The position numbers were made by a program, and so were the translations under genes. This document shows positions 983 to 29,094 of a stretch of 32,738 nt of DNA, piece by piece. Source of the stretch: Fonticula-like sp. SCN 57-25 (Eukaryota); assembly GCA_001724245.1 (NCBI GenBank), contig MEDX01000041.1, positions 1 to 32,738 of the forward strand. The letters run 5' to 3'. The first letter of the stretch is position 1. Each line of letters begins with the position of its first letter. The notes beneath the pieces are model-generated. The model was not told the DNA's origin. It saw only the letters and a program-made list of their open reading frames with translations, and made no database searches.

Positions 983-1017
983 CCCTGAAAGTTGGTAATG
1001 CTGACTGTCACAAGTGC

Positions 1018-1030
1018 TTTCCCGCGCAAA
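1018..1030. promoter_or_regulatory. Candidate overlapping double E2F-type site (TTTCCCGCGCAAA) in the 53-bp LIG4/METTL21 divergent spacer
   Basis: Contains TTTCCCGC on + and TTTGCGCG on -, resembling the E2F consensus TTTSSCGC; position between two divergent ATGs. Confidence 0.4.
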
Positions 1031-1035
1031 TCATC

Positions 1036-4469: not shown

Positions 4470-4505
4470 TCAAATGCTGACTGTACATCATCGCTTGGCC
4501 AAACA

Positions 4506-10830: not shown

Positions 10831-11583
10831 GACTACTGTCCGACGTATGCAGAAAGGAACGCAGCCACAAACAACTGGCCTCCGTTCCTTTTATCCGCGG
10901 CCATCCTCACCCAGGGCGGACCACCCCTCAGGGCGCCCGTCTAGCAACAACATGCAATAATGCAATAACAGGCGAGCCCCAAGCCCACGTGGTCAATTCC
11001 ACGGCCGATCCCCGTCGATCTGATTGGCTCAATGGCGTCGATCGTTCAAGGGGCAACAATCGATGTCCCACCAACATTCTCGCGGTCGGGTCTTTCGGGA
11101 TCCTCGGATCACCCTGGGGACGACCATCCCCGCGGCCCCACCGCCCGCCGCCTCAGCCAGACGGCTGAGCTTGCTCTAATGTCTATTCCGGCGCTCCCGC
11201 GCACATGTGCACACGAGAAGCCAATGACTTTGTGAGGACAAGCACGCCATTGGAACGCTTGCCAATGGTGGGCCGTTTCACTGGAAGGCAGATCTATATT
11301 TCCTTTTTGGGACAGGATGGGTGCAACATTCGCATCGCTCCCACAGTCGCTCACAGGGCGCAACCTTTCTCTTCACCTGCGGTGAAAATCCTTCTCGGGG
11401 ACCAGCGCGTTTTGCCTGCCCCGGCAGTCTTTCGACAAGCTTCCTGTTGCTTTTCTCCGTGTCGAACTGCTCGCCGCTGCCTCGCTATATCTCTCTACGC
11501 GTCCTGTCGATTTAAAGACTGCCTTTGCGAAGGAAGGTGATTTTACGGTGGTAGATCTTGCGTCGGGTGACTTGAAGCGGATC

Positions 11584-14091: not shown

Positions 14092-17000
14092 ATGGCGAGC
14101 GTGTCGGTTCGCGCCAAAACAGCGGATCTCGTGCACGACGAGCCGCGCCCGGCGGTCCTGCTGCAGCGGCTCAGGCGAGCGAGCGCGCGCGCCGGCAATG
14201 AAATAGCACAGCAGTATGTGTGGGCTGTGGCGACACGCGGCACGATGCCGGACTGGGCGGTTGCAGCCGCATGCGACGTGCTGGTGCGCATACCCGATTT
14301 TACTTGCGCGACTGACGCAGGACTCAGGTGACGTGGGTAAAGACGGGCGCGCTTGACGCTCTGGCGGCAGAAAAGCAGCTTTTAGTGGCTATATTAGCGC
14401 TTCAAGTAGAGCATGCAACCATCCTGCTTGACGCGCTGCTGTCCATTCTGCCCCTGGATAGTCGCGACGCCCTTCTCGCCATCGCCCGCCAGCGGCCCAA
14501 CCTGATGGGCGCCATTCTACGCCAGGCACCCACGCGCATCCCGCTCGTTCGTTTTCTTGCAGCGGCGCCGGACCGCACGTTGAGGTCGCATTTCCCAGCC
14601 CACTTTGCGCGCGCCGCCTTTAGCGGCGCCGCCGAAGACGACCAGGTCGTGTGCCTCGAGCTATACTTTGCCGCCCTGGAGGACTTTCAGGCGGACGAGG
14701 CGCTGCTCGTGATTGAAGAGTTGCTTTTGCGGCGTGAAAAACTGACGCGTAGTGACGATATTGCCTATATTCTGCTTGAATTTTCCCTGCGGGCTTCCTC
14801 CCTTGGTCTTTCAAAGGTCGTTGCCGCTGCCTTTCGCGCCGCCCACATCCTCCTTGGCTCGCAAAATACCCAGCTCTTGTGTTGCGTTGGCGCAGCCCTC
14901 ATTTGCAGCGCACTTTCGAGCGTTGATATTTGCTGCGCTGTGCTCGATAAAGTTCCCGACGCCGCATGCCTCGCGCTTCCGCTCCACCAGCTGGTCTGCG
15001 TGCTCGGCCCCGGCCAGCTCCGCGATACTGTCGCCGCCCGATCCCGCGCCTGCAGTTTGCTGACAGCGATTGAATGTGATGACTTTTCCTCGCGTGTATT
15101 GTGTCCTCGCGTATCGCTTGTGGCGGCACTTGCGGCGGCGGCGCGGCAAACCCCGGGCCATTTCCTTGACCAGGTTGCCCCCAAACTCGCCTCTGCGCAC
15201 TTTGCCGACGTCGGCATCATTCTGCCGTTTGTTGGCGCATTTGCGCACATGAATGATGCTTCTCTGAGGGCGTCGGCTGTTACTGCGCTCGGCTCTGTCG
15301 CGCGCCGCGACGCCAACCAAGCTGCGATGCTCGTCTCGTTTGCGCTCGCCGTCATTGCCACAGAGCGCGACGCCGAAGCGCTTTCTGCCATGCTCTTTTC
15401 GCTGCCTCTTTTCGCGACAGGCCCCGCCGCGTCTGTGGCCGTGCTGCGCATCCTGCGTGGCTTTGCCTCGAACGCCGGCCTTCGCCCCACCGTTATCCGT
15501 GTCCTGATGACGCTCGTTGCGACGCGAGGCGAAGGCTTTTCGCTGCTTCACGTTCTCCTACACAAGACGCTCGCTGAGGAGAACGGCCCCGCCGCCGCAC
15601 GAATCGTTGCCGCGCGGACAGTCCACCAGCTGCTTGCCGACCGCGCGACGGCCCTCGTGAAGCCTCTCCTTGCCATGGTCATTACGTTTGTCCCGCGCGA
15701 GCGCGACCAGTTTGTCCGCGCGGCGCTGCTGGACGGCCTCGTCGAGTGCTGTGCGATGGAGCTTGTCGGCTCGCTGGCCGCATGGTCGCACGTCGTCGAT
15801 CGCTCGGACCTCTTGAAGGACGCACGCGTGCCCGTGCGCGCCGCCATCTGCCGCCTCGGCGAGGCCATCCTGGCCGACACGGCCGACCTTGCGCATCGCC
15901 TCGAGGGCGGCCAGGTCCTTTCGCCCAACGCGCTGCGACTGCTCGACATTCGTGCAGCGGCCATGCGAGTTCTCGTGCAGACCGCGTCGCAGGGCAACCC
16001 GTCGCAGGCGCACGTGGCTGCTGCACTCGTGGCTTTGGCCGGCGTATCACAGCGCACCGTTGAAGCCGACGGCGTCACGCTCGTGGACGGCCTTGCGCAC
16101 GATGCGGCGCTTGTCGTCGGCCAGCTGGGCCATGAGAGCACGCCGGCGCTGCGACCCGCTGAGGAAGAGGCGACGGCGGCGTTTCTGCACGCTGCAGCCG
16201 CCTTTGAGGCGTCTCACGCGCGGCGCGGGCCGGCGTCCGGCCACGTGTCCAGGCGCGCCGCGCCGCCGGCCGGTCCGCTCGTCGAGACGGAGGCGTTCCT
16301 CGCGACCGCCGCTCAGCGTGCAACTTCGTCGGCACAGCGCGCTGCCATGACAGGCGCGCTTGCGTTCTGCCGCACGTCGCTCGCGGCGTCTTGGCTCCAG
16401 GACAGCCTCGCTGCCGAGATGCCGTCCGAGCCGTGGCTCATGCGAACCGCATGTGAGGGTTGGTCGCGACTTTTTACGGCTCACTTTTCCGCCACCGACG
16501 ACGAGGTACAAATGTTTTCTTTCGGTGTCTTTTTACTGACAACTTCATAGGGCAATGTGCGTGAAATGTTGTCGACGCTTGCACAGATGGCGTCGCAGCG
16601 CGGCCTGTCTTCTGGCCGCCGCGTCGCCGTCCTGTTTGCCCTGGCGGGTCTCGCGAGTGCGGCGCGCCACCGCGACGTACCGCTCTTTTACCCGGCCGAG
16701 TCCGCCGTCGACGCCTTTTTGGCCATCCTCGAGGGCGACGACGCGCTGAGCGAGGTGAGGAGCGCCTCCGCCATTGCTTGCGCCGTTGCCGCCGCGTGCC
16801 TTCACTCGGACGACGCGACACGGCTGCCACGCCTGCTTGCCGTCCTCGCGCGCCTCCATGCCAGCGCCGACGACGAGGACTGCCAGTCGGCCGCGGCCAT
16901 TGGCTACGGTGTGCTGACGTCAGCGCACAAGGCGACCGGGGTTGCCCCGCAGGCGACCTTTGCCACCAGCGGCGCGCTCATTGCGCACTGGCAGGCGGCG

Positions 17001-18680
17001 GCGCTTTGTCGTTCAGACGCGCCGCTCCCTGATATTCCGTCGGCGGCCGCCATTGGAAAGGCCATGTCGGAGCGGCTTCCCAAGGTGCTTGCCTTCCTGC
17101 GCCCGCTGGGCGACGCGCTCATGTCGCCGTCCCTTTCGGCGGACCAGCTCGACACGCTCAGGTCGACCGCCCAGATGCTCGAGAGCCTTATTCTGTCGGT
17201 ACGTCAACCGGTTTTGTGAATTTTTTTGGTCAATTTCTGACACTTTTTGCAGAGCGGCGCTCACTCGGCCGCCCTGCCTGTCTTTATTCTTTATGCGGCG
17301 GCAGTTCGGATGTCGGCCGACGTGAATGTCCGATTCGAGTACGCGCAGCGTTGGCTTGCCGTTGCGGACGCTGCCGATGGGTCGTCTGACGGTGTCCCCG
17401 CGTGGCACCGCCTCGCCGCCGTCTCCGCCGCCGGCGTCGTCCTTGCCATCGACCCACTTCTGCCGCCGACAACCACTCTCGAGTCCGTCAGCGGCGCTCA
17501 GCTTCAAGAGGCGTCAGCGATGCTCACGCGCATTGTTGGGCACGCGACCGATGCGCGCACGCTCAAGGTCGCCGCGCTCATGCTCGCAAAGGCGGCGGTG
17601 GCGCGCGCGGCGCTCGGCGCGAGCCGACATGATGAAAAGGTGGCGACGCTGACGGCGCTTATGGTGAAGAGCCTCGCGCGGTCGTCGCACGCGTCGCACC
17701 GCCGTGTGCTGATGCGCGCGCTGTGCGCCGCCGCGCCGCGGCAGGTAGATGCAGAGGCGCAGTTGCTCGTCCCTGCGCTGCGTACAAGCCTAATGTCAGA
17801 CGACGAAGCCGGCGCCGCCACGGAATGTGTCCTTGAGCACGCCGGCACGAGCAAGGCCGTCGGCGAGCTGCTCGCTGACCTGCTTAGTGCGCCGCAGCCG
17901 CGCATCTTTGAGCGCCTTGACAAGCTCGTTGCGTGTACCCCGACGAGCGAGGCGCTCATTGCGCGGCTTGACGCCGTCGTGCGCGCGGCGTCAACCGAAT
18001 CGGACTGCGCTGCGCTGCTTGTTGGCTTTTCGCGCGCGTGGAGAGCCGCGGCAGACGCTCGTCAGCCTGTCATTGACGCGCTCTGGTCGGCCACGGCGGC
18101 GTTTTTCAACGGCGCTGCATTGCATTTCCCGCAGCTGGCGAGGCGGGCGTCGGCCGTTCTTCTCCCTGCGGCACCGCATGTGCCCTGGGACGGCGTTCTT
18201 GCGCGCCTCCCCGACGCCTCCTTTTCCATCGCTGCCGCGTGCGCCGTCAAGAGTAGCACTGCCGCCGACGACGCAGTCAAACGCAAGGCGACGCTCGTGC
18301 TGTGGGACTCCGTCGCGCGCCTCGTCGACGAGCCGAACGCCAATCTGGCCGCCGCGGCGCGTGCGATGGCCGCGGGCCTACTGGACGACGAACTTGTTTC
18401 GCTGCTCGACGTGGCGGCGCGCGTCAAGCAGCCGGGCCGCGTCGGCGCGTTGTGGACCGCGACGGCGGTTGAGCGGTGCAGTGCCGCGTCGTGCGCGGCC
18501 AATGGCGAGCGCTTTATTGGGACGCTGGCTGGGCAGATGACGCAGTTTGACGCTCTGCACCGCCGCCTCGGGCAGGCTGGGTTGCAGAGCGTGGACCGCA
18601 TGCTTGTGCTGCAGGGTGCAGCGAGGAAGAGCGCGTGGGCGCTGCCACCGTCTGACTGGGATGCGGCCATTTTTGCATAG
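14092..18680 (+). CDS. FOCAD: Focadhesin/RST1-like ARM-repeat protein, ~1481 aa; exons 14092-14283, 14328-16505, 16551-17198, 17253-18680
   Basis: Long helical Ala/Leu-rich protein. N-terminal YVWAV...AACDVLVTWV and central MLFSLPLFA...VLRILRGFASNAGLRPTVIRVLMTL resemble focadhesin DUF3730 segments; three canonical introns keep frame. Divergent, recognised from memory. Confidence 0.68.
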
Positions 18681-18753: not shown

Positions 18754-21035
18754 TTACACAGAAGCAGACTTTTGCAAAGCATCAACGAGCGCCGTCTTTC
18801 GGAAGCGCCTCGCCTCACTAATCACCGCACTCCTCAACCAAGCAGCGTCGCCCGCCGCCACCGCCGCGATCTCGGCCACAACCGGCGCACTGTCCCTCAC
18901 CGCCGACCGCAGCATCCTGAATATGCGTGCTCTCGCCATTCGCGCCTCCTCTGACGGCGCAGCGACCTTCTGCTCGAGCTGCGCGTCAATCCACAGCCGG
19001 ATACGCTTTGCAACTGGCTCGCCCGTGGCCCCGCTCGGTACCTCCTCATCAACGCCCGGCTCGATCGCGACGACGGTCGATGCGGCGCTCTCTTGGTCAT
19101 ACTCGTCGCGGTAGTCAGCGGGCGCCTCCACATTGACGTCATCGCGCTCAGCAGTAATGACATCACGACTGCTCTTTGCCGCCGCCGCTGCTGCTGCGTC
19201 TGCCGCTGCCCGGCCCGACGCGCCGCCTCCCATGGCCGCTCCGCCGAGCTCGTCTGCTTCGTCGACCATCATGGCGGCGCTCCTCTTGAATGGGTTGCCA
19301 AAGTAGGGCTGACGGCGCGCAACGTCCTGTGTCTCATCGACGACGCGCGGTTGCTCACTCTTGGCCATGCGCGGCAGGTAATCGCTCATCTCTGCTATGC
19401 TGACGCTGTGCTTAGCGCCCGTAAAGAGGTCGGCGGCGCGCGGCGCGACGAGAGCAAGTCGCATGCGCAAAAGCTGGTCAAAAATCTGGCTGCGCTCAAT
19501 GTCGAATGCGTTGCGTGTAAAGTCACGCGTCTTTGTGGCGGCGGCGCGCGGCCGCACACCGTTGCGTGGTGGGCGAACCTCAAACTGATTGCTCTCAAGC
19601 GCAGTTTCGCCCTGCTGCAGCATACGCACGAGCAGCGCGCGGTACGGCGATGCCGCGCGCAAATGATCGCGGTGGCGCTGCAACACAGGCTCCATCCACG
19701 GCGTGAGCGACTGCAAAAAGGGAACCATCGTCGGCCAGTAGTAGTGCGGCAGCGCCTGCAGGTACTCGTCCATCGCCTTCTTCCACTCGGCGGGCGGAGG
19801 CGCGTCCGGACCGGCCGCCGTGCACGTGTCCATCAACAAAGAAAGCGTGGGAAAGTTGTACGGCAAGAGGTGGAGCTGCAGGCCGCCGTTCCCCGACGGG
19901 CATAGCAAGGCGCACGGCTGACCGAGGCCCGCCTGCCGCCCGGAATTACGCACATAGACGTGCCAACAGACGCCTGCGCTCGCCTTGGCCAGTGGCGCCG
20001 TTAAAGAACACAGGTCCACGTCAAAGGCACTACGCGGCATGCGCTTGTTCAGCGCGGCCGTCTGGTCGGTTGGTACGACCACAAGTGCGGGCACGGCAGA
20101 ACGCAGCGGCGGCGGCTCGCCGGCAAAGTCGGGCCAAAAGGACTCTGGTACTTTAAGGCTCGGCGCGCCGGGCGTCGGCGGTTCGGCGTACAGAAGCACA
20201 CGGTGGCTGCGCGACGGCTGGCCGCCCTGCGAGGCCTCCTCAAAACTCACCTGCATGCCGGTGAGAAGCTGGCCGAGCGACGGCGGGTACTGGCGCTTTG
20301 CCCGGGACTCTGCCCCGAACTCCATCGTCTGGAGGAGGCGCTTGAGGCTGTGCAGGACAATGCTGCGGCCGCCGGTGCGCTCGGCGAGCGCGCAGAGCGG
20401 CCACGAGGTGATGTGCGAGTCGGAAAGAGTGACGCCGGGGGCGGTGGGCGACGTCAGGATGAGGTTGATTACGCGGTAGTCCCAGCTATAGGGCTCGAGG
20501 CGGAGCTCGCCAGACGAGGTCGTCAAGTTGAGGCGGCTCGTCGCGCCGCCGACATCGGTGATGACAATGAACACGGCGGGGCGAAAGTAATGCGGGTTGC
20601 GACCTTGGCAGTACGTTTCGGAGCGGCGGCGCTGAAAGTTGATGAGATCGAATACGTTCTGGAGACTCGCTGTCGGATCGGCTGGATCTACAGCCGACAG
20701 CATCTTTACCTCATCTAGAAAAGTTATCGTCGAATTGGCATTTGAGTGGCGCTTGAAATACTAAAAATGAATTAGATAAACAATAAAGTCAATATTCAAA
20801 TACCTTTAGGCCATATGGCGGCTCTTCAAAGGTCGAGAGGATGTACTCGTCAGGGCGCGGGCCCCGCGTCTTTTGTCGCCGCTAGAATCAAGGTGAGCGA
20901 CAACCACCAAAAAAACTAAAACAATACCCTAACAAAATGCTCGACGGCGCTCTTTGCACAGTCCAGCATTGTCAGTCCGTGGCTGAACCGCTGCCCCATT
21001 GAGGGGCTCGTGTCCACCACGAATATAAAGTCCAT
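18754..21035 (-). CDS. INTS6: Integrator complex subunit 6, ~730 aa; exons 21035-20928, 20881-20804, 20760-18754
   Basis: VWA start MDFIFVVDTSPSMGQR...LDCAKSAVEHF, QGRNPHYFRPAVFIVITD, LEPYSWDYR, PESFWP, LPYNFP, HSVSIAEM and FGNPFK are conserved INTS6 motifs. Confidence 0.9.
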
Positions 21036-21116: not shown

Positions 21117-23432
21117 ATGCGTGGCTCGTGGGTTGTGGAGGATGCAGGCGCGCCGGCCGAAGCTGCCGCGCCAGCCGCGCCAGAAGGCCGCCGCGAGCGG
21201 TGCGCACCATGCATACAGATGGAGTTTCATGGATACTGACACATTGCTTTTGTAGGAAACGCAAGGATGGCCAGCTTGAGGCGCGCCACGATGGCGGCGC
21301 TCCGACTGCCAAGCGCCGGCGCCAGTACGTCGATGCGACGAACGGCCTGCCGTGGCGCCAGGTGACCTTTGACCGTGATGCTATTCACTTTGATATGAGC
21401 GGATTTGGTGGCCTCGAGGAAATCGACGCCGACGACTTTGATGTCGAGAGCCTGCGCACTGAAGCGCCCGAGACGATCAAGGCGGCGGCCGAGAAGAAGG
21501 CGGCCGACAAGATCGCTGCCGACAAGAAGGCGGCCGAGAAAAAGACGGACAAAAAGACAGACAAGAAGGCGAATAAAAAGGCAGACGATAAGAAGGCGGC
21601 GAATACCGACAAGGATGTAAAGGAGCCCCCGACCAAGAAGGCCAAGAAGCCGGCCAAGGGCAAAGCCGCTGCTGCCCAGGGGCAACCCGGAGAAGCGACG
21701 GACGACGCCAATGACGGCGAGGGCTCGCAGGACACGGCAGCGAAGCGCGCTGAACGATTGGCTGCGCAGCGCCTTCAGAATGCGAATGTTGACGTGAGCG
21801 CGTGGGCGCCATTTGGACTTCACGCTGACTTGCTCGACGGCTTGCGTGCGCTCGGCTTCACCAAGCCGACGCCCGTGCAGGAGCGCACGCTGCGCGCTGC
21901 CCTCAAGAATGACCACGACGTTGTCGGCTCTGCCGAGACGGGCTCTGGCAAGACGCTTGCCTTTGGCCTGGCCGTCCTGAACCGCCTCCTGACCGACTTT
22001 TCCGACGCGCCGCGCGGCCTTAAGGCGCTGATCCTGACGCCGACGCGCGAGCTTGCCATGCAGGTGCGCGCGCATCTGGAGGCCGTCGCGCGCTTCACGG
22101 GTATCAGCGTTGTCGCCCTCGTGGGCGGCATGTCCAAGCAGAAGCAGAGCCGCGTGCTGTCCAAGAATCCCGAGATTTGCGTGGCCACGCCCGGCCGGCT
22201 ATGGGAGCTGATCACGGAGGAGGGCCTCGCGTACTTTGGCACGCTTTCGTCGCTGCGCTTTTTCGTGCTCGACGAGGCGGACCGCATGATCGAAAACGGC
22301 CACTTTAAGGAGCTGGACATGCTTGTTGACCTGCTCAACAAGGGCCGCAAGGTGGTCGACTGGGTCTCGCCCGAGGACCGCAAGATCTTTAAAAAGTTTT
22401 CCGCGGTGGAGGACGAGGCCGAGGAGGAGTCGGCCGAGCCCGCCGTGCGCCGCACGTACGTCTTTTCGGCCACGATGACGCTCGGCGACCTGTTCAAGAA
22501 GCAGGTGACGGGCCGCAAGAAGCACGCGTCGGGGTCGCTCAGCGAGCTCATGGCAAAGGTGCGCTTCCGCGACCCGCCAGGGCCCGAGATTGTCGACGTC
22601 TCGCGCACGGGCATCATGGCCGCGTCGCTCGCAGAGTCGCGCATTTTCTGCTCCAACGACGAAAAGGACCTCTACACATATTACGTCATCATGAAGCGCC
22701 CGGGCAAGTACATTGTCTTTGTCAACAGGTACGCTTAAGTCCAATTTATTTGGCTCTTTTAAGCGATTTTATGCTGATTCACTCTTTAGTATTGACTGTC
22801 TTCGCCGTCTCATCCCGCTTCTGTCGCTTCTCGGTGTGACCACGTGGGGCCTTCACGCTCAGATGCAGCAGCGCCAGCGCCTCAAGAACATGGACCGCTT
22901 CCGCGAGGCGACTGGCTCGTGCGTGCTCGTCGCGTCTGACGTGGCCGCGCGCGGCATCGACATCCCCGACGTCGACCACGTCATCCACTACCAGATCCCG
23001 CGCTCTGCCGAGACGTACGTGCACCGCTCTGGCCGCACTGCGCGTGCCAACCGCGCCGGCACGAGTCTCATGCTCGTCGGCCCCGCCGAGCTCGAGTCGT
23101 ACAAGAAATTCTGCGCGGCGCTCCAAAAGCCCGACGGCATCGACGCCTTCCCCGTCGACGAGGTGCTCGCCAAGCAGCTCGCGCGGCGCGTCAAGGTCGC
23201 CACGCAGCTCGACAAGCTGCAGCACAAGGAGAGGCGCGTGACGGCAGACGGCGTTTGGCGTAAGCGCACGGCCGAGGCCATGGGGATCATGCTCGACGAC
23301 GACGACGACAAGCGCGACGACGGCGAGGGCGATAACAGAAAGACGGAGAGCGGGCAGGTGAGGTCGCTGCAGTCGCAGCTGCGCGACCTGCTCGCAATGC
23401 CGCTCGACAGGCTCAAGCGCGCTCACGCGTAG
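21117..23432 (+). CDS. DDX24: DEAD-box RNA helicase DDX24/Mak5; exons 21117-21199, 21256-22728, 22790-23432
   Basis: FGGLEEID N-terminal motif, AETGSGKTLAFG, PTRELA, ATPGRLWEL, LDEADRM, FSAT, LHAQMQQRQRLKN, YVHRSGRTARA. Confidence 0.93.
21481..21610 (+). repeat. Coding low-complexity repeat (KKAADK/KKTDKK) within DDX24
   Basis: Repeated (gac/gag)aagaaggcg(gcc) units encoding AEKKAADK...KKTDKKTDKK. Confidence 0.7.
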
Positions 23433-23519: not shown

Positions 23520-24475
23520 CTAGCTGCTCGCTTCGGGCGCGTCCAGGTCCACGCCGTGCTCCGTGACGAGGATGTGCTCGACGTACCGCAGCCACCCCTC
23601 GGTCACCATAGCCTGCGACGACACAAAGGAGGCCTCCAGCAGTGAGTACGCCTTGCGTAACCGTGCGAGCTCGGTGGGAAACTCGTCGTCCTTGGCTTCA
23701 TTCTTGACCAGCATGGACGCCATGACGGTCTGTGCTGACGGGTAGCCCTTTGGCACAAATAGAGTCAGAATGAGGGCGGGAAGAAGGGAAGGCGCACCTT
23801 GTCGGCGGCCTGCTTAAAGTGATGATAGGCCTCCTGGAGATCGGCCTTGGGGACAAACTCGCCGGTCGCGAGCACAATGCCCGTGTAATAGTTGGCTAGT
23901 GTATGGCCCTGTGCATACAGAGTTAGACAGCGAGGGGAAGGGAGAGGGACATGCCTGAGCGCTGGCCATGCGGAGCAGCTCGACCATCCGCGTGGTGTCG
24001 ACCTGGATGCCAGGATGCGAGCCCTAGAGATCAGTGTGAGAAGCTGAGAAACAGCATTGACATACGTACCTTGCGGTGAATCATTGCCAGCTCGTACTGA
24101 GCGGCGGCAATGTTGCCGCCGTACGCCGCCTGATCATAGAGCTCGCGCGCCCTACGGTACTCTTGGTGAGCGTGCATGCCGCGGTGTCCATCGCGCCCAC
24201 GCGTACCTATTCATTCCTTTGTCGTCCTTGACCTGTCCCCGCACGTACATTGCCGCCGCGCTGTGCGCCGCCGCGTGGCTCCCGAGAGCCGCCGCCTTCT
24301 CAAGCAGCTTTATCTTCTCCTCCGGCTTCAAGTTTGCGTTTCCCGCCTCCTTGACCAACCTATCCGCGACATCCCCTTCGCCTGCCGTTGGGGCATCGCC
24401 GCCGCCGATCGACTGCGCCACCTTCCCCGTCCACAGAAACCGCGCCGCGCCGCCGGCACCAAAGCCGCCCCGCAT
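23520..24475 (-). CDS. Sel1-like repeat protein, possibly mitochondrial, >=252 aa; exons 24475(or 24514/24523/24532)-24207, 24151-24070, 24023-23955, 23908-23798, 23747-23520
   Basis: Repeats LLEKAAALGSHAAAH, LYDQAAYGGNIAAAQYELA, LLRMASAQGHTLANYYTG, HFKQAADKGYPSAQ match the Sel1 consensus; intron 23954-23909 is GC-AG. Confidence 0.82.
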
Positions 24476-27185
24476 GGCACTCGCGGCCGCCGCGCCGACG
24501 CTGCGCGCGCTCATCGCCCGCATCACCGACATTGAGCCGGGAACGTACAACTTTACGCTGTGCGAGACGTTTGCAACTGCCAATGTACAGCGGCACAAGT
24601 TTATGGACATTGACGAGCAGCGGACCTCTGAGGGCCTGTGGGCGTACGCGAGCGCCCTTTAGTGGGTATATGGCTGCTAACGCTCTGTGGAACGGTAGGC
24701 TTGTCGAAAAGGAGCAGATCCACGCCAAGTTTGCCAGGGCGCGCGATCTCGAGCGGCTCGCCACCGGCTTTGATACCATCCTCTCGCGGTCGTCGCTGCC
24801 CGTGTCGGTCAAGCGCAATGTCGCAGGCATAGTGTGCATTCTCATGGAGCTGGAGAGCACGGCGGACCCGCGGCTGACCCGACCCGACGACGCTCTGCCG
24901 GCCCCCGCCGTCGCCGCCGAGGAATACGTCTACGAGGTGCGCTGAAATCAGTTACTGTCGGACCGCTAACATGGCGAGCGCAGCCGCCGAGCGACGCCGA
25001 CTCGTTTTCCACTGCAGCCAGCAGCGACGACGACGACTGGCTAAGTGATGCCGAAGATGCTACTGCCGCCAAGTCGTCTGCCGAGCACGGTCACGTCCAG
25101 GACATGTCGGCCCTACCGCTGTACGACCGCGGCGCGTACGAGCACTCTGCGTCAGCGCAGCACCAAATGGAAGCCTCGCGTGACGCGCAGTATTGGCCGC
25201 AGGCACTGCGCCCGTTTGGCGCTCCGCTCTCCGAGTGGGACGCGATGCGCGAGGCCGTCCTGCAGCTCCAGTCGGGCGCGTCGCTCCTCTTTGCCGCGTC
25301 GCCGTCGGGCGACATCTCCGTCCACCGCGGCGCCGCCTTTGCCGACGTGTCGCCCGACGTTGCGCACGCGTCGCTGTCGCGCGTCTGCCCCGCCGCGCGC
25401 GCCGCCGCTCGCATCGAGCGCTTTTGCGGGTGGCACCGCGGCTCAGACAATGCGGTCATGTCGGCGCTCGTGGCGGCGGTGGCCGAGACGCTTCGGTCGT
25501 GCCGCGGCGACGGCCTTGGCCCAATTGAGCGCGCGCTTGTTGAGCAGGAGCGCATGGCCGCCGAAGTGCCGCCGCCGCCGGCGCAGCGCCTGCACGACTT
25601 TGTCGACAGGATCGTCGGGGCAATGTCGACCACCGTCGCGTTCGCCGCCGTCATCGACCGCATGGAAGGACGCGTGGCGCCCAACGCAGGTGCGCATATA
25701 ATGATACTTTATGTATAGCACTTTTGGACTCTTTTTGACACTTTTCGGTGCTTTTCAGCCGCTCATGAGCAAGCTCGCGTTGTTGTGGATGTTCTTCTTG
25801 ACCAACTTGAGGCCGAGCACGCCGCAGATGACCGCCTTCGATTCGACGCCGTCGCACGCGCCCTTCTCGACTGCCTCGCCGCGTATCTGAGCGAGCTTGA
25901 ATCGTGGCTCGCCGGCCGCGGCAGCCGCGCCGTCCCACTTCACCTGTCGGCCGCCTCTCCGTCCCTGCGCACAAGCGCGTCGATTCGCGAGATGGTCTCT
26001 GTTCGTGGCGCCTTTCCCGCGTGCATGTCGGCGTCGGCAACGAGCTGGATGGAGGCCGGTCGCTCGTGCGCGCTGCTGACGCGCCTCTCGCGCGAAGCCG
26101 TGCACCGCTCGCTGGCGCCCTTTTTGTTGCCGCGCCGCCTCGTGGACGCGCTCGGCGACGGCGCCGCGGCGGTTGACGCGCTGTGGCGTGCGCCCGCGCC
26201 GACCGTACTTTTAACCGCCGCACTGACGACCATTGCGAGCGACGCGGCAGCGGCGGTCGGCGTACCGATGGCCAACTTGCTCGCCTCGCACACGTCGGTG
26301 CGCGGCGCCATCGCAGCGCTCCGCAGCGTCTTCCTCATGACGTCGCCGACGATGGGCGCCTTTGCCGCCGAGGTCTTTTCGTTGCTCGACGCGGCGGGCG
26401 GCGACGCCAAGCGCGTCCCAAACCTCACGCTGCGCTTTCGCGAACACTTTTCAGGCGAGCTCGGCGAGTTTGCCGACCGCTGCCTGGCCGAGATTGTTCC
26501 GGCTGGCGACCTCGCTGGAACCGCCAGCGACGCATACTATGGCCGCATCAACGTCATCATGGACGTGCCATGGCCTGGCGCGCTCATCGTCGATGATGCG
26601 CGGCTTGCTGTAGAGTACCGCGGGGCACAAGCAGTGCTGTTGGCAATGTCGGGCGCGCGCCGCGGGCTCGATGCAATGACAGTCGCGCGCGGCCAAAAGA
26701 ACGCAGCAACGCTGACAAGATATAAGGCGCGGTTCGATATGCTTGCCACGATTGTCGCGCTGCAAGAGTTTTATTCAGTTGGTGTTGTGCGGCCGCTGTG
26801 TGCGCAGGCCGACGCTGCATTTGGCGAAGCGGCGAATGCGCACGACTTTTTCCGCGTTCACGAGGCATTTGTCGCGTCGATCAGCGAGCGGTTCATGCTG
26901 GGCGCCAGTCAGCATGCGGCGCATGCGGCGCTCACGGCGATGCTCGGCGTCTGCAGGCGGTTTGGCGACGCATGTGCGCGCGAAAACATGGACAATGATG
27001 ATGATGTTATGGGAAAGTATGGCGCGTTCAGGGAGCACCGCGGGCAGTTGGTGGCGCAAGTGCAGCTGCTCAGCGACACAACTGGGAGAGAACACTGTAC
27101 GAAATGCTTTTTATTGTGTGTTTGCTGATGATGAATGATAGGGAAATCGCTTGCGGACGTTCTTTCCAGCGACATCAGCATATAA
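24474..27185 (+). CDS. TUBGCP5: Gamma-tubulin complex component 5, ~831 aa; exons 24474-24643, 24699-24936, 24984-25689, 25759-27096, 27142-27185
   Basis: N-terminal LRALIARIT...NFTLCETFATANVQRHKFMDID...LVEKEQIH resembles the GCP5 N-terminal helical domain; also QYW, SEWDAMREAVLQL, LRSVFLM and DVPWPGALIV (Spc97/98 family). Confidence 0.8.
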
Positions 27186-27312: not shown

Positions 27313-29094
27313 TTACTCGTCATCCGACATGGCATCGTCGTCCTTTTTCCCCGCCGCTGCGAGCTGCTCCTCCGCCTCTGCGCGCACCGCCGGGTCGAGC
27401 CTGTCCGAAAAGCGCTCGCGGACCGCCGAGATATCCCACGCGTTCCATACCGTGAGCGGCCCCTTGTCGCCCGCCGTCGCAACCAAGAACGCCGCGTCGG
27501 GCGCCACAGACGTATTAAACAGCTTGCCCTAAAACACACAGTCAGCACATGACTTCCAAATCAACAATAAAAAACGTACAATTCCGACGTTGCGCGAGTG
27601 AACGAGCGCCGGCCTCAAGTTTGTCGTGTCCCAGATCTTGACCGTCTGGTCAAACGACGCCGTGACCATGCAGTCAGTGATGAGCGGGTGAAAGTCAACT
27701 GTCGTGCACGCGCGGTCGTGCGCCTGCAGCCTAAACACGGAAGCCGCCTGCCCCGCCGTGTGGTTGCGCACATCAAACACCGTGACGGAACCGTCCTCGG
27801 CGGCGACAGCAAGGTACTGCGCGTTGTGCGGGTTCCACCGCAGGCTCTCGACGTCGGCGGTGACGGCCCAGCGCGCGACGGCGCCGGGGGCGCGCGTGTC
27901 CCACGCAGTTACCGCGTGGTCGTAGCCGCCCGCGGCCAGCACGGTCGTCTCGGTCGGGTTCCACCGGATGCTCTGCACCTTGTCGGCGTGGTGCGAGTAG
28001 ACAGCGACGGACTGCGCGGTCTTGAGGTCCCACAGGCGTATCGTCTTGTCGGCCGAGCAGGACGCGAGGAGGTTGCGGTGCGCGGCGTTCCAGGCGAGGC
28101 CGAGGACCGCGTCAGTGTGGCCGGTGAGCTCGGCGGCGGAGACGTCCTTGCTCTTGCCCTTCTTGCCCTTCTTGCCGCTCTTGGCGGGGGCAGCGGGGGC
28201 AGTGCCGCGGGCGAGCACAGTGTGAGGGAAGAGGGCATCGACAACGTCAAGATCCCAGATCTCGATCTCGGGCTCGAACGTTCCGATCGCAGCAAAGTTG
28301 CCTATTTACACGCGCAATTCGGCGCACATATGAGTAACGCGCATTCGAAACTGAGGCCAAAAACGTACCGAGCGCAGTGCCGTCCGTCGAGGGCTCGTAG
28401 TTGATCCACTCGAGGCAGAGCGGGAACGACGGGAGCATCACGTCGTGATGTGTGTACAGGTTGTCATCGGCCTCTTCGTAAATGTTCACTTCGAGGTTGG
28501 AAATGTCGTCTTCCGTCTTGACAGAGAGAACGAGGCGATCCGACGGCAGGATGGTGAGATCATCATCCTCGTCGTCGCTGTTCTCCTGCATCGTAATATA
28601 GGGATCCTCCTCGTTGGACTGGTGGAACTGCAGACCCTTAAGGCTGGTCAGTAGCGGAAGCTCTGTCCGTGTAGTGTGAGTGGATCATGATGCCGAAAGG
28701 GGGATGCCCGCGTACCGCCGTCCTCGTTATAGTCGTCAAAGCGGTACTCTGCAAGCTCGGGCGGGATGGCATTGTTTGACGCGACGGCGGCCATCGCCGC
28801 CTGCTTGACCGCCTTGCTCTCCTCCTTCACCTGCTTCTTGAGCGCCTTGGCCGCCTTGGTGGCCGCCGCCGTGGCCACCGCCACCGCCTCGGCATCCTCC
28901 TCGTCCATCTCCTCCTCGTCGTCGTCCTCAAAGTCGACGTCCTTTTCGTCGGCGAGCCGCTGCGCCTGCTCGTCCGCGAGCGACGTGTACTGCCGGATCT
29001 GCTCCTCTGTCGGCTGGAAACGCGCGGGCGAGGCGCGCGCGACGCCGCGGCGAACCCACCCGACCGCGGTGATCATGGCGCCGGTCGATTCCAT
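27313..29094 (-). CDS. PWP1: Periodic tryptophan protein 1 (WD40); 4 exons
   Basis: MITAVGWVRRGVA start, acidic region, DPYI, LEVNIYEEADDNLYTHHDVMLPSFPLCLEW, GTFEPEIEIWDLD, GHTDAVLGLAWN; three GT-AG introns. Confidence 0.93.

Follow-up and report, generated by a model that had tools for sequence, protein, structure and literature searches.

Two divergently oriented protein-coding genes of Fonticula-like sp. SCN 57-25, a GCP5-like gene on the plus strand and a Sel1-repeat gene on the minus strand, very probably adjoin each other without any intergenic DNA, provided that both start at AUG. The pair is located in a window of 32,738 nucleotides (nt), which represents the whole of one contig (GenBank MEDX01000041.1) from a fragmented metagenomic bin of 9.5 Mb and 749 contigs. 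The letters 24473-24476 read CATG and provide the ATG of GCP5 on the plus strand (24474-24476) as well as the ATG of the Sel1-repeat gene on the minus strand (24475-24473). With good confidence, this zero-gap arrangement is considered real and probably functional. The complete explanation, in which the Sel1 protein is translated mainly from 24475 and gained this start by start-codon capture, is favored with less assurance. The gene models and main features are the following:

24473..24476, both strands: shared CATG, 2-nt coding overlap in phase 123:213 with third codon positions aligned
24474..27185, plus strand: GCP5-like gene, five exons, 831 amino acids, no internal stop
24474-24643, 24699-24936, 24984-25689, 25759-27096, 27142-27185, plus strand: exons of the GCP5 gene model
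24474..24643, plus strand: GCP5 exon 1, residues 11-51 matching the N-terminal module of human GCP5
23520..24475, minus strand: Sel1-repeat gene, five exons, 252 amino acids from ATG 24475
24475-24207, 24151-24070, 24023-23955, 23908-23798, 23747-23520, minus strand: exons of the Sel1 gene model
24209..24313, minus strand: exon-1 part of Sel1 repeat 1, 35 residues, 11.5 bits, starting 57 residues after Met 24475
24341..24475, minus strand: Sel1 codons 1-45, Gly/Ala-rich (20/45) and without homologues, which would also carry the promoter and 5' untranslated region (UTR) of GCP5

Domain evidence for both start codons

Pfam matches, intact spliced frames and mostly synonymous strain differences identify both members of the pair as genuine divergent protein-coding genes. 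The GCP C-terminal (GRIP2) domain (PF04130) was recognized in the plus-strand protein with an E-value of 2.3e-8 and a score exceeding the cut-off, and Pfam Sel1 on exon 4 of the minus-strand gene with an E-value of 2.5e-5, the best single-exon score of 25.1 bits lying below the cut-off of 30.7 bits. Both gene identities proposed in an earlier reading made from the letters of the window (hereafter the sequence-only reading) are supported. Likewise, the CATG with an ATG on both strands and all ATGs named there are present and in frame. In the Sel1 frame, minus-strand ATGs occur at 24250, 24475, 24514, 24523, 24532 and 24610; the list of upstream ATGs in that reading was correct for 24514, 24523 and 24532 and had overlooked 24610. 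The next in-frame ATG on the plus strand is at 24603, and the frames are open over 24658-24152 (minus) and 24048-24662 (plus).

For GCP5, the ATG at 24474 appears to be needed for the N-terminal module. Exon 1 gave a single match at E<=10 among 177,635 PDB sequences, namely to residues 25-66 of GCP5 (6l81_A), and this weak match (E 0.27) carries weight because the matched N-terminus belongs to the family which the C-terminus names independently. Exon 1 matched no Pfam family, and exon 2 gave only chance matches in PDB. The N-terminal module of human GCP5 binds MZT1, according to the accessible part of the report (PMC8789826), and MZT1 is also encoded in this genome. The window protein thus resembles human GCP5 (PDB 6L81; PMC8789826, as far as accessible) in the N-terminal match, the C-terminal GCP domain and the presence of MZT1 in the genome, but it is highly divergent, and its GCP5-type identity derives from sequence alone. 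The ATG at 24603 corresponds to residue 44, and a start there would delete most of the N-terminal match. On the plus strand, no ATG in any frame occurs in 24251-24473.

For the Sel1-repeat gene, a profile built from 8 repeats of two other genes in this genome revealed four repeats of about 36 residues in register. The score of the exon-1 part of repeat 1 was reached by none of 5000 random proteome segments, and the best Atlas matches of exon 1 were Sel1 clusters (0.90). Met 24250 falls within this repeat, aligned to the conserved Met-Tyr of the profile, and judging from this alignment it is probably an internal residue and not the start. The only minus-strand ATGs between 24251 and 24473 are 24396 and 24372, both out of frame, and neither of them could be joined by splicing to the part of the Sel1 frame which lies upstream of 24290, even at relaxed thresholds. 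From its frame and repeats, the Sel1 gene would need ATG 24475 or one further upstream; any upstream exon would sit inside GCP5 and hence enlarge the overlap. No homologues were found for exons 1 and 5 of Sel1 or for exon 1 of GCP5, all of them short queries with longer proteins being searched. One candidate homologue of the Sel1 protein (P0002) was rejected as a repeat-summed chance match, and otherwise only the window's own protein was retrieved.

The expectation of the sequence-only reading that the next downstream ATGs would remove conserved sequence holds for the N-terminal match of GCP5 (24603) as well as for Sel1 repeat 1 (24250). Any AUG-start model which keeps both of them leaves no intergenic DNA, the sole escapes being a non-AUG start or a truncated repeat. 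The overlap of the coding sequences thus holds by domain-required starts, provided that initiation takes place at AUG, and the location of each promoter and 5' UTR inside the partner's coding sequence, which had also been proposed, would follow logically from the same premise.

Support for the junction from other assemblies

Contigs from three of four sequencing runs (X3, X4 and X5) bridge the junction without insertion. The contigs of X3 (24321-24721) and X5 (24349-24553) show no differences across the junction, and that of X4 (24254-24675) features five substituted letters and a 3-nt gap; run X6 provided no bridging contig among those compared. The matches listed in a metagenome scan included one near-identical contig, the ENA contig L002, which shows no difference across the junction. 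X3 and L002 are possibly not independent of the source of the window. As X4 and X5 originate from studies of other years, which differ from the probable source, a collapsed assembly is unlikely and has already been largely refuted.

The layout is kept in the one variant strain, X4, and the searches turned up no more distant relative. The comparison with X4 included 38 of 39 listed substitutions, with a depth of 3.55 for the junction contig and three further differences near ends outside the list. Synonymous changes accounted for all four differences in the last exon of Sel1 and for 12/19 in GCP5. Sel1 codons 1-45 carry G3D, V19A and a 3-nt deletion in this strain, and the near-cognate GTG at 24421 is replaced by GCG.

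Gene-finder baseline

A two-strand gene finder was written, whose first coding model was based on 19 segments of the window that included two downstream exons of GCP5, and whose self-training rounds excluded both junction genes. Applied to the window and a further 974,869 bases of the genome, the finder called 456 genes, with 163 divergent pairs among them. The genome is gene-dense, with a median intron length of 53 nt and donors mostly of the type GT(A/G)CG(C/T), and the divergent gaps of the 163 predicted pairs have a median of 143 nt and a 10th percentile of 54 nt. Short gaps are ordinary in this genome; in the window, for example, the genes of a DNA ligase and a methyltransferase lie 53 nt apart, and their Pfam matches begin at residues 21 and 27. 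Trained in this way, the finder picked the starts 24475 and 24474; it also placed additional doubtful introns within GCP5 exon 4. Coding scores of 8.3 and 10.0 were obtained over the initial 74 and 144 nt of the Sel1 frame, and these were attained by 0/61 and 0/25 gap windows, respectively (600-kb model). With 74% GC and without a promoter word, the stretch 24359-24473 stands apart from the 102 predicted gaps of 60-300 nt, in which the GC content does not go above 67% and of which 7 have no such word. CATG spacing was called in 3/163 divergent pairs, one of which is on inspection probably false and another a candidate, so that the true frequency amounts to about 1-2 in 163. The case for the overlap is built on the two domain arguments and not on the finder, the evidence of which is partly circular and its margin small.

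Several points weigh against the preferred explanation. The margin of the finder at the junction (7.9) is no larger than that at an overlap judged false in the same window (8.9), and the gap statistics are partly circular, as the finder would take a GC-rich gap for part of an exon. In Sel1 codons 1-75, the difference between true and antisense score is 4.6, compared to a 5th percentile of 14.8 for 421 genes, and on its own, the part preceding Met 24250 reaches only 3.1 bits (Atlas 0.82). No orthologue of the Sel1 protein was found in the searches run. The ATG of GCP5 at 24474 has a C at -3, a position occupied by a pyrimidine in only 51/450 predicted starts. The model scores of Sel1 starts at 24475 and 24514-24532 lie within 1.6 units and are inseparable. 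A set of 20 promoter words showed no enrichment at the junction, with 3 matches as against 2.9 for coding windows and 18 for 400 nt of gap. Moreover, 120 of 129 annotated coding overlaps of Encephalitozoon cuniculi vanished on correction of the starts and 9 were kept, according to the available portion of the report (PMC2803860), which serves as a precedent but also calls for caution, as most of them were wrong starts. The support as a whole is sequence-based, with transcript ends and promoters deduced from it.

Origin of the shared CATG

A cytosine at -1 was found in 153/313 predicted starts, all of which therefore carry an antisense ATG. The palindrome itself is not beyond chance; the unusual feature is that the Sel1 frame is free of stops up to its ATG. 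Since the third codon positions coincide, a plus-strand codon that begins with AT and follows a C provides an antisense ATG, which may concern a start as well as an Ile or Met codon. In a start-loss test with 258 divergent-gene starts, 52 had a reachable upstream ATG, 21 of these being inside the partner and 6/21 at CATG spacing. Likewise, a simulation of 75,000 gap contractions resulted in 16,096 overlaps, 33.5% of them at CATG spacing. CATG is thus the default and commonest landing point when the partner gene supplies the replacement for a lost start, and its recurrence is accounted for by the frequency of C at -1. A function of the palindrome itself was rejected, as it is explained by the -1 C context and the start-loss tally. 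RNA structure around the CATG is not special (z 0.95 and 0.81), and no palindrome or notable repeat was found surrounding it.

Start-codon capture is the likely origin of the pair, as reconstructed from the present layout and not from an ancestral state. The Sel1 gene would have lost a nearer start, upon which scanning ribosomes would have taken the next upstream in-frame AUG, the reverse complement of the C-ATG of GCP5. Former UTR or promoter DNA would thereby have turned into a loose, Gly/Ala-rich N-terminal tail of the Sel1 protein. Capture fits the properties of codons 1-45, which are Gly/Ala-rich, without homologue and changed in X4.

Promoters and transcripts

Divergent gaps of this genome are enriched in TCACGTGA, CCAATCA/CTGATT, GCAAAC and TGACGTCA. 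GCAAAC occurs twice at the junction (0.18 expected), once on each side, which is seen in 1.4% of coding windows, the word being chosen post hoc. The candidate elements are the following:

24332..24337, plus strand: GTTTGC/GCAAAC within the Sel1 coding sequence, some 140 nt before the ATG of GCP5; candidate promoter element, picked post hoc
24569..24584, plus strand: GTTTGC (24569) and CCAAT (24580) in GCP5 exon 1, preceding Sel1 ATG 24475 by 95-110 nt; candidates, picked post hoc

According to the proposed mechanism, the pair would consist of two ordinary, unrelated genes lying head to head without intergenic DNA, GCP5 being translated from ATG 24474 and Sel1 mainly from ATG 24475, with two coding bases shared. 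RNA polymerase II would start each transcript shortly inside the first exon of the partner, and the 5' ends of the mRNAs would be complementary over approximately the sum of both UTRs. Co-regulation or mild transcriptional interference would be the expected outcome, rather than a switch. By analogy, interference or duplex effects are possible, as in INO80E/HIRIP3 (PMC11890862, in the part accessible). A functional link between the GCP5 and Sel1 proteins was not seen in this analysis.

Two side observations concern these regulatory regions. Gaps across 15 contigs indicate a promoter vocabulary of TCACGTGA, CCAATCA/CTGATT, GCAAACTG and TGACGTCA for the organism, with TATA-like words being scarce upstream of starts. 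In addition, a strong minus-strand donor GTACGT (5.7) in GCP5 exon 1 and a weak acceptor 48 nt further on (24548-24501) could delimit a 5' UTR intron of Sel1.

Upstream start codons and alternative explanations

The choice of the Sel1 ATG depends on the transcription start. Beyond 24475, the following feature is available:

24476..24532, minus strand: optional Sel1 extension with ATGs 24514, 24523 and 24532, antisense to GCP5 codons 2-20

With the zero gap kept, the Sel1 transcript may start above 24517 and be translated from one of these three ATGs, the extra 13-19 residues being dual-coded and part of a mitochondrial presequence and 24475 giving a shorter isoform by leaky scanning. This is unlikely, though worth serious consideration. 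The long forms have a net charge of +3 to +4 and no acids in their first 30 residues, which bears out the composition claimed in the sequence-only reading. Regarding charge, acidity and hydrophobic moment, only 1.4-3% of the 440 predicted N-termini do as well as or better than the forms from 24514-24532, compared to 16% for the form from 24475, and several mitochondrial-looking proteins of the genome, identified by eye, show similar values. The near-equal model scores mentioned above are also in favor of the long form, as are the distance of about 70 nt from CCAAT 24580 to 24514, near the genome peak of -60 to -90, and a further Sel1 protein of the genome whose N-terminus, judged by eye, resembles a presequence. 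On the other hand, each of the three ATGs arises where an Ile codon of GCP5 follows a C and is hence a by-product of the opposite strand. Since Ala and Arg codons of GCP5 largely yield Ala and Arg again when read in antisense, the composition of the extension follows from the GCP5 N-terminus; open, acid-free antisense peptides with at least 2 basic residues accompany 55/313 other genes (13/212 under a stricter rule). The hydrophobic moment of the 20-residue extension alone is 0.06, which together with the commonness of the composition weakens the case for the dual-coded presequence proposed earlier; a segment that extends beyond Met 24475 has a moment of 0.38, and the short form one of 0.19. 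Furthermore, 6-11% of the antisense frames of ordinary genes have an antisense coding score as high as that of the extension, the first 30 residues include one Leu or none, and in X4 the third codon counted from 24475 specifies Asp instead of Gly (one contig, depth 3.55). The still more specific idea, by which a mitochondrial targeting peptide of Sel1 is antisense to the first helix of the MZT1-binding module of GCP5, the choice of start in GCP5 exon 1 yields a long (mitochondrial) or short isoform and CATG pairs make up about 1% of divergent pairs, is rather doubtful.

The absence of any overlap, with Sel1 starting at a non-AUG codon (e.g., TTG 24358) or at Met 24250 and the DNA from there (24359 or 24251) to 24473 serving as a GC-rich shared promoter or UTR, is improbable. 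It is suggested by the weak strand signal in Sel1 codons 1-75, by a lower-GC patch with the word GTTTGC at 24295-24340 and by the X4 changes, which are non-synonymous in 2/2 cases within this stretch, along with the 3-nt deletion, in contrast to 4/4 synonymous ones in the last exon. False overlaps are also common in gene calling, as experienced with the finder used here and as described in the available portion of PMC2803860. Against this stand the loss of part of repeat 1 with Met 24250, the two out-of-frame ATGs 24396 and 24372 (start scores 6.3 and 4.8) preceding it, the reading frame kept by the X4 indel, and the partly circular finding that 24359-24473 differs from the 102 predicted gaps in GC content and promoter words. 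In addition, non-AUG main starts are uncommon, which weighs against this explanation. A start of GCP5 at ATG 24603, with the first helices of the MZT1-binding module lost and a gap of 70-127 nt, is highly improbable. The weakness of the PDB match when taken alone, the lack of a Pfam match in exon 1 and the C at -3 of 24474 would speak for it; nevertheless, the single PDB match belongs to the family of the protein's own C-terminus, 24474-24602 scores as coding on the plus strand (19.1), the start score of 24603 is 0.05 compared to a 5th percentile of 3.25, and MZT1 is present in the genome. Barely conceivable is that an assembly collapse removed an intergenic region or that the Sel1 gene is silent. 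The fragmentation of the metagenomic bin is in line with a collapse, but X3, X4, X5 and L002 cross the junction without insertion, and four well-formed introns, an intact frame and the synonymous changes in the last exon of Sel1 speak against silence.

Comparison with known systems

Head-to-head overlap itself is known in animals, microsporidia and prokaryotes, and zero-gap sharing of start codons in a CATG is rare but of known type. Divergent protein-coding pairs with overlapping 5' ends have the same orientation as the pair of GCP5 and Sel1, and RNA duplexes, R-loops and interference are the consequences there. Such overlaps arise mainly via alternative transcription starts and are avoidable, whereas the overlap of start codons predicted here would be obligatory. 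E. cuniculi features a head-to-head gap of 35 bp, 5' UTRs of <7 nt, the 9 retained overlaps and signals inside the adjacent coding sequence, as far as the accessible text of the report describes (PMC2803860); it is, however, an intron-poor parasite, while the organism of the window is intron-rich with the median divergent gap of 143 nt. In prokaryotes, divergent overlaps represent the rarest class, and 59% of 331 are in phase 123:213, according to the available part of PMC2174442, which fits CATG as the default landing point. Orientation and phase are as in the pair described here, but the messages are eukaryotic, capped and scanned, without Shine-Dalgarno sequences or sigma promoters. No report of eukaryotic shared start codons was found by titles and the beginnings of abstracts, most subscription papers being outside the search.

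If confirmed, two eukaryotic promoters and both 5' UTRs would be located wholly in coding DNA, making the pair a natural and clean system for testing the minimum of dedicated promoter DNA with which polymerase II can work. A recurrence of zero-gap CATG pairs at about 1% of divergent pairs in this intron-rich protist would show that promoters of polymerase II may be placed entirely within coding DNA in organisms other than parasites. Of wider relevance is the finding that about half of the start codons carry an antisense ATG via C at -1, which makes it the commonest replacement site for a lost start. This context explains true CATG cases and also warns that gene finders invent such overlaps, here probably at least once.

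Further observations on the pair and its surroundings

Within the Sel1 gene, intron 3 (23909-23954, minus strand) is a 46-nt GC-AG intron, and GC donors also occur among the predicted introns genome-wide. Ahead of its ATG, the GCP5 frame continues without a stop for 142 codons (24048-24473, plus strand), antisense to Sel1 exons 1-2, probably by chance; such an upstream-open antisense frame was found in 15/446 genes. A change in X4 at 24045 removes the respective stop and would leave 210 codons open from ATG 24015, taking two separate contigs of this strain together. On contig C2 (about 22000-23300, plus strand), another Sel1-repeat gene has an N-terminus resembling a mitochondrial presequence and was fused by the finder to an upstream electron-transfer flavoprotein-like gene, both identities being assigned by eye.

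A second candidate CATG pair is located at C5:10947-10948. Its minus-strand member is a WDR26-like gene with a LisH match from residue 20; its plus-strand gene, presumably VPS54-like, has a start without homology support, with an ATG near 11448 as an alternative. The CATG pair at C11:32817 was rejected, as 4 promoter words occur in the next 94 nt and ATGs are available further downstream, and so was the short-gap call at C15:21740, where the adjoining 247-nt stretch holds 6 promoter words. Calls at window position 29075, C13:20715, C5:47102, C2:78188, C4:3302 and C1:20977 were rejected by eye due to tiny or implausible first exons. Very short divergent gaps comprise 36 nt (window 4470-4505), 53 nt (window 983-1035) and 27 nt (C3:1113-1139), the first two containing the word AATGCTGACTGT and the third GCAAACTGCAAACTG.

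Neighboring genes are taken to resemble POLR3C, TASP1, VPS54, STK24, PWP1 and DDX24. In the window, 14092-18680 presumably encodes a focadhesin-like protein and 18754-21035 one which is taken to resemble Integrator subunit 6, the latter having a VWA match.

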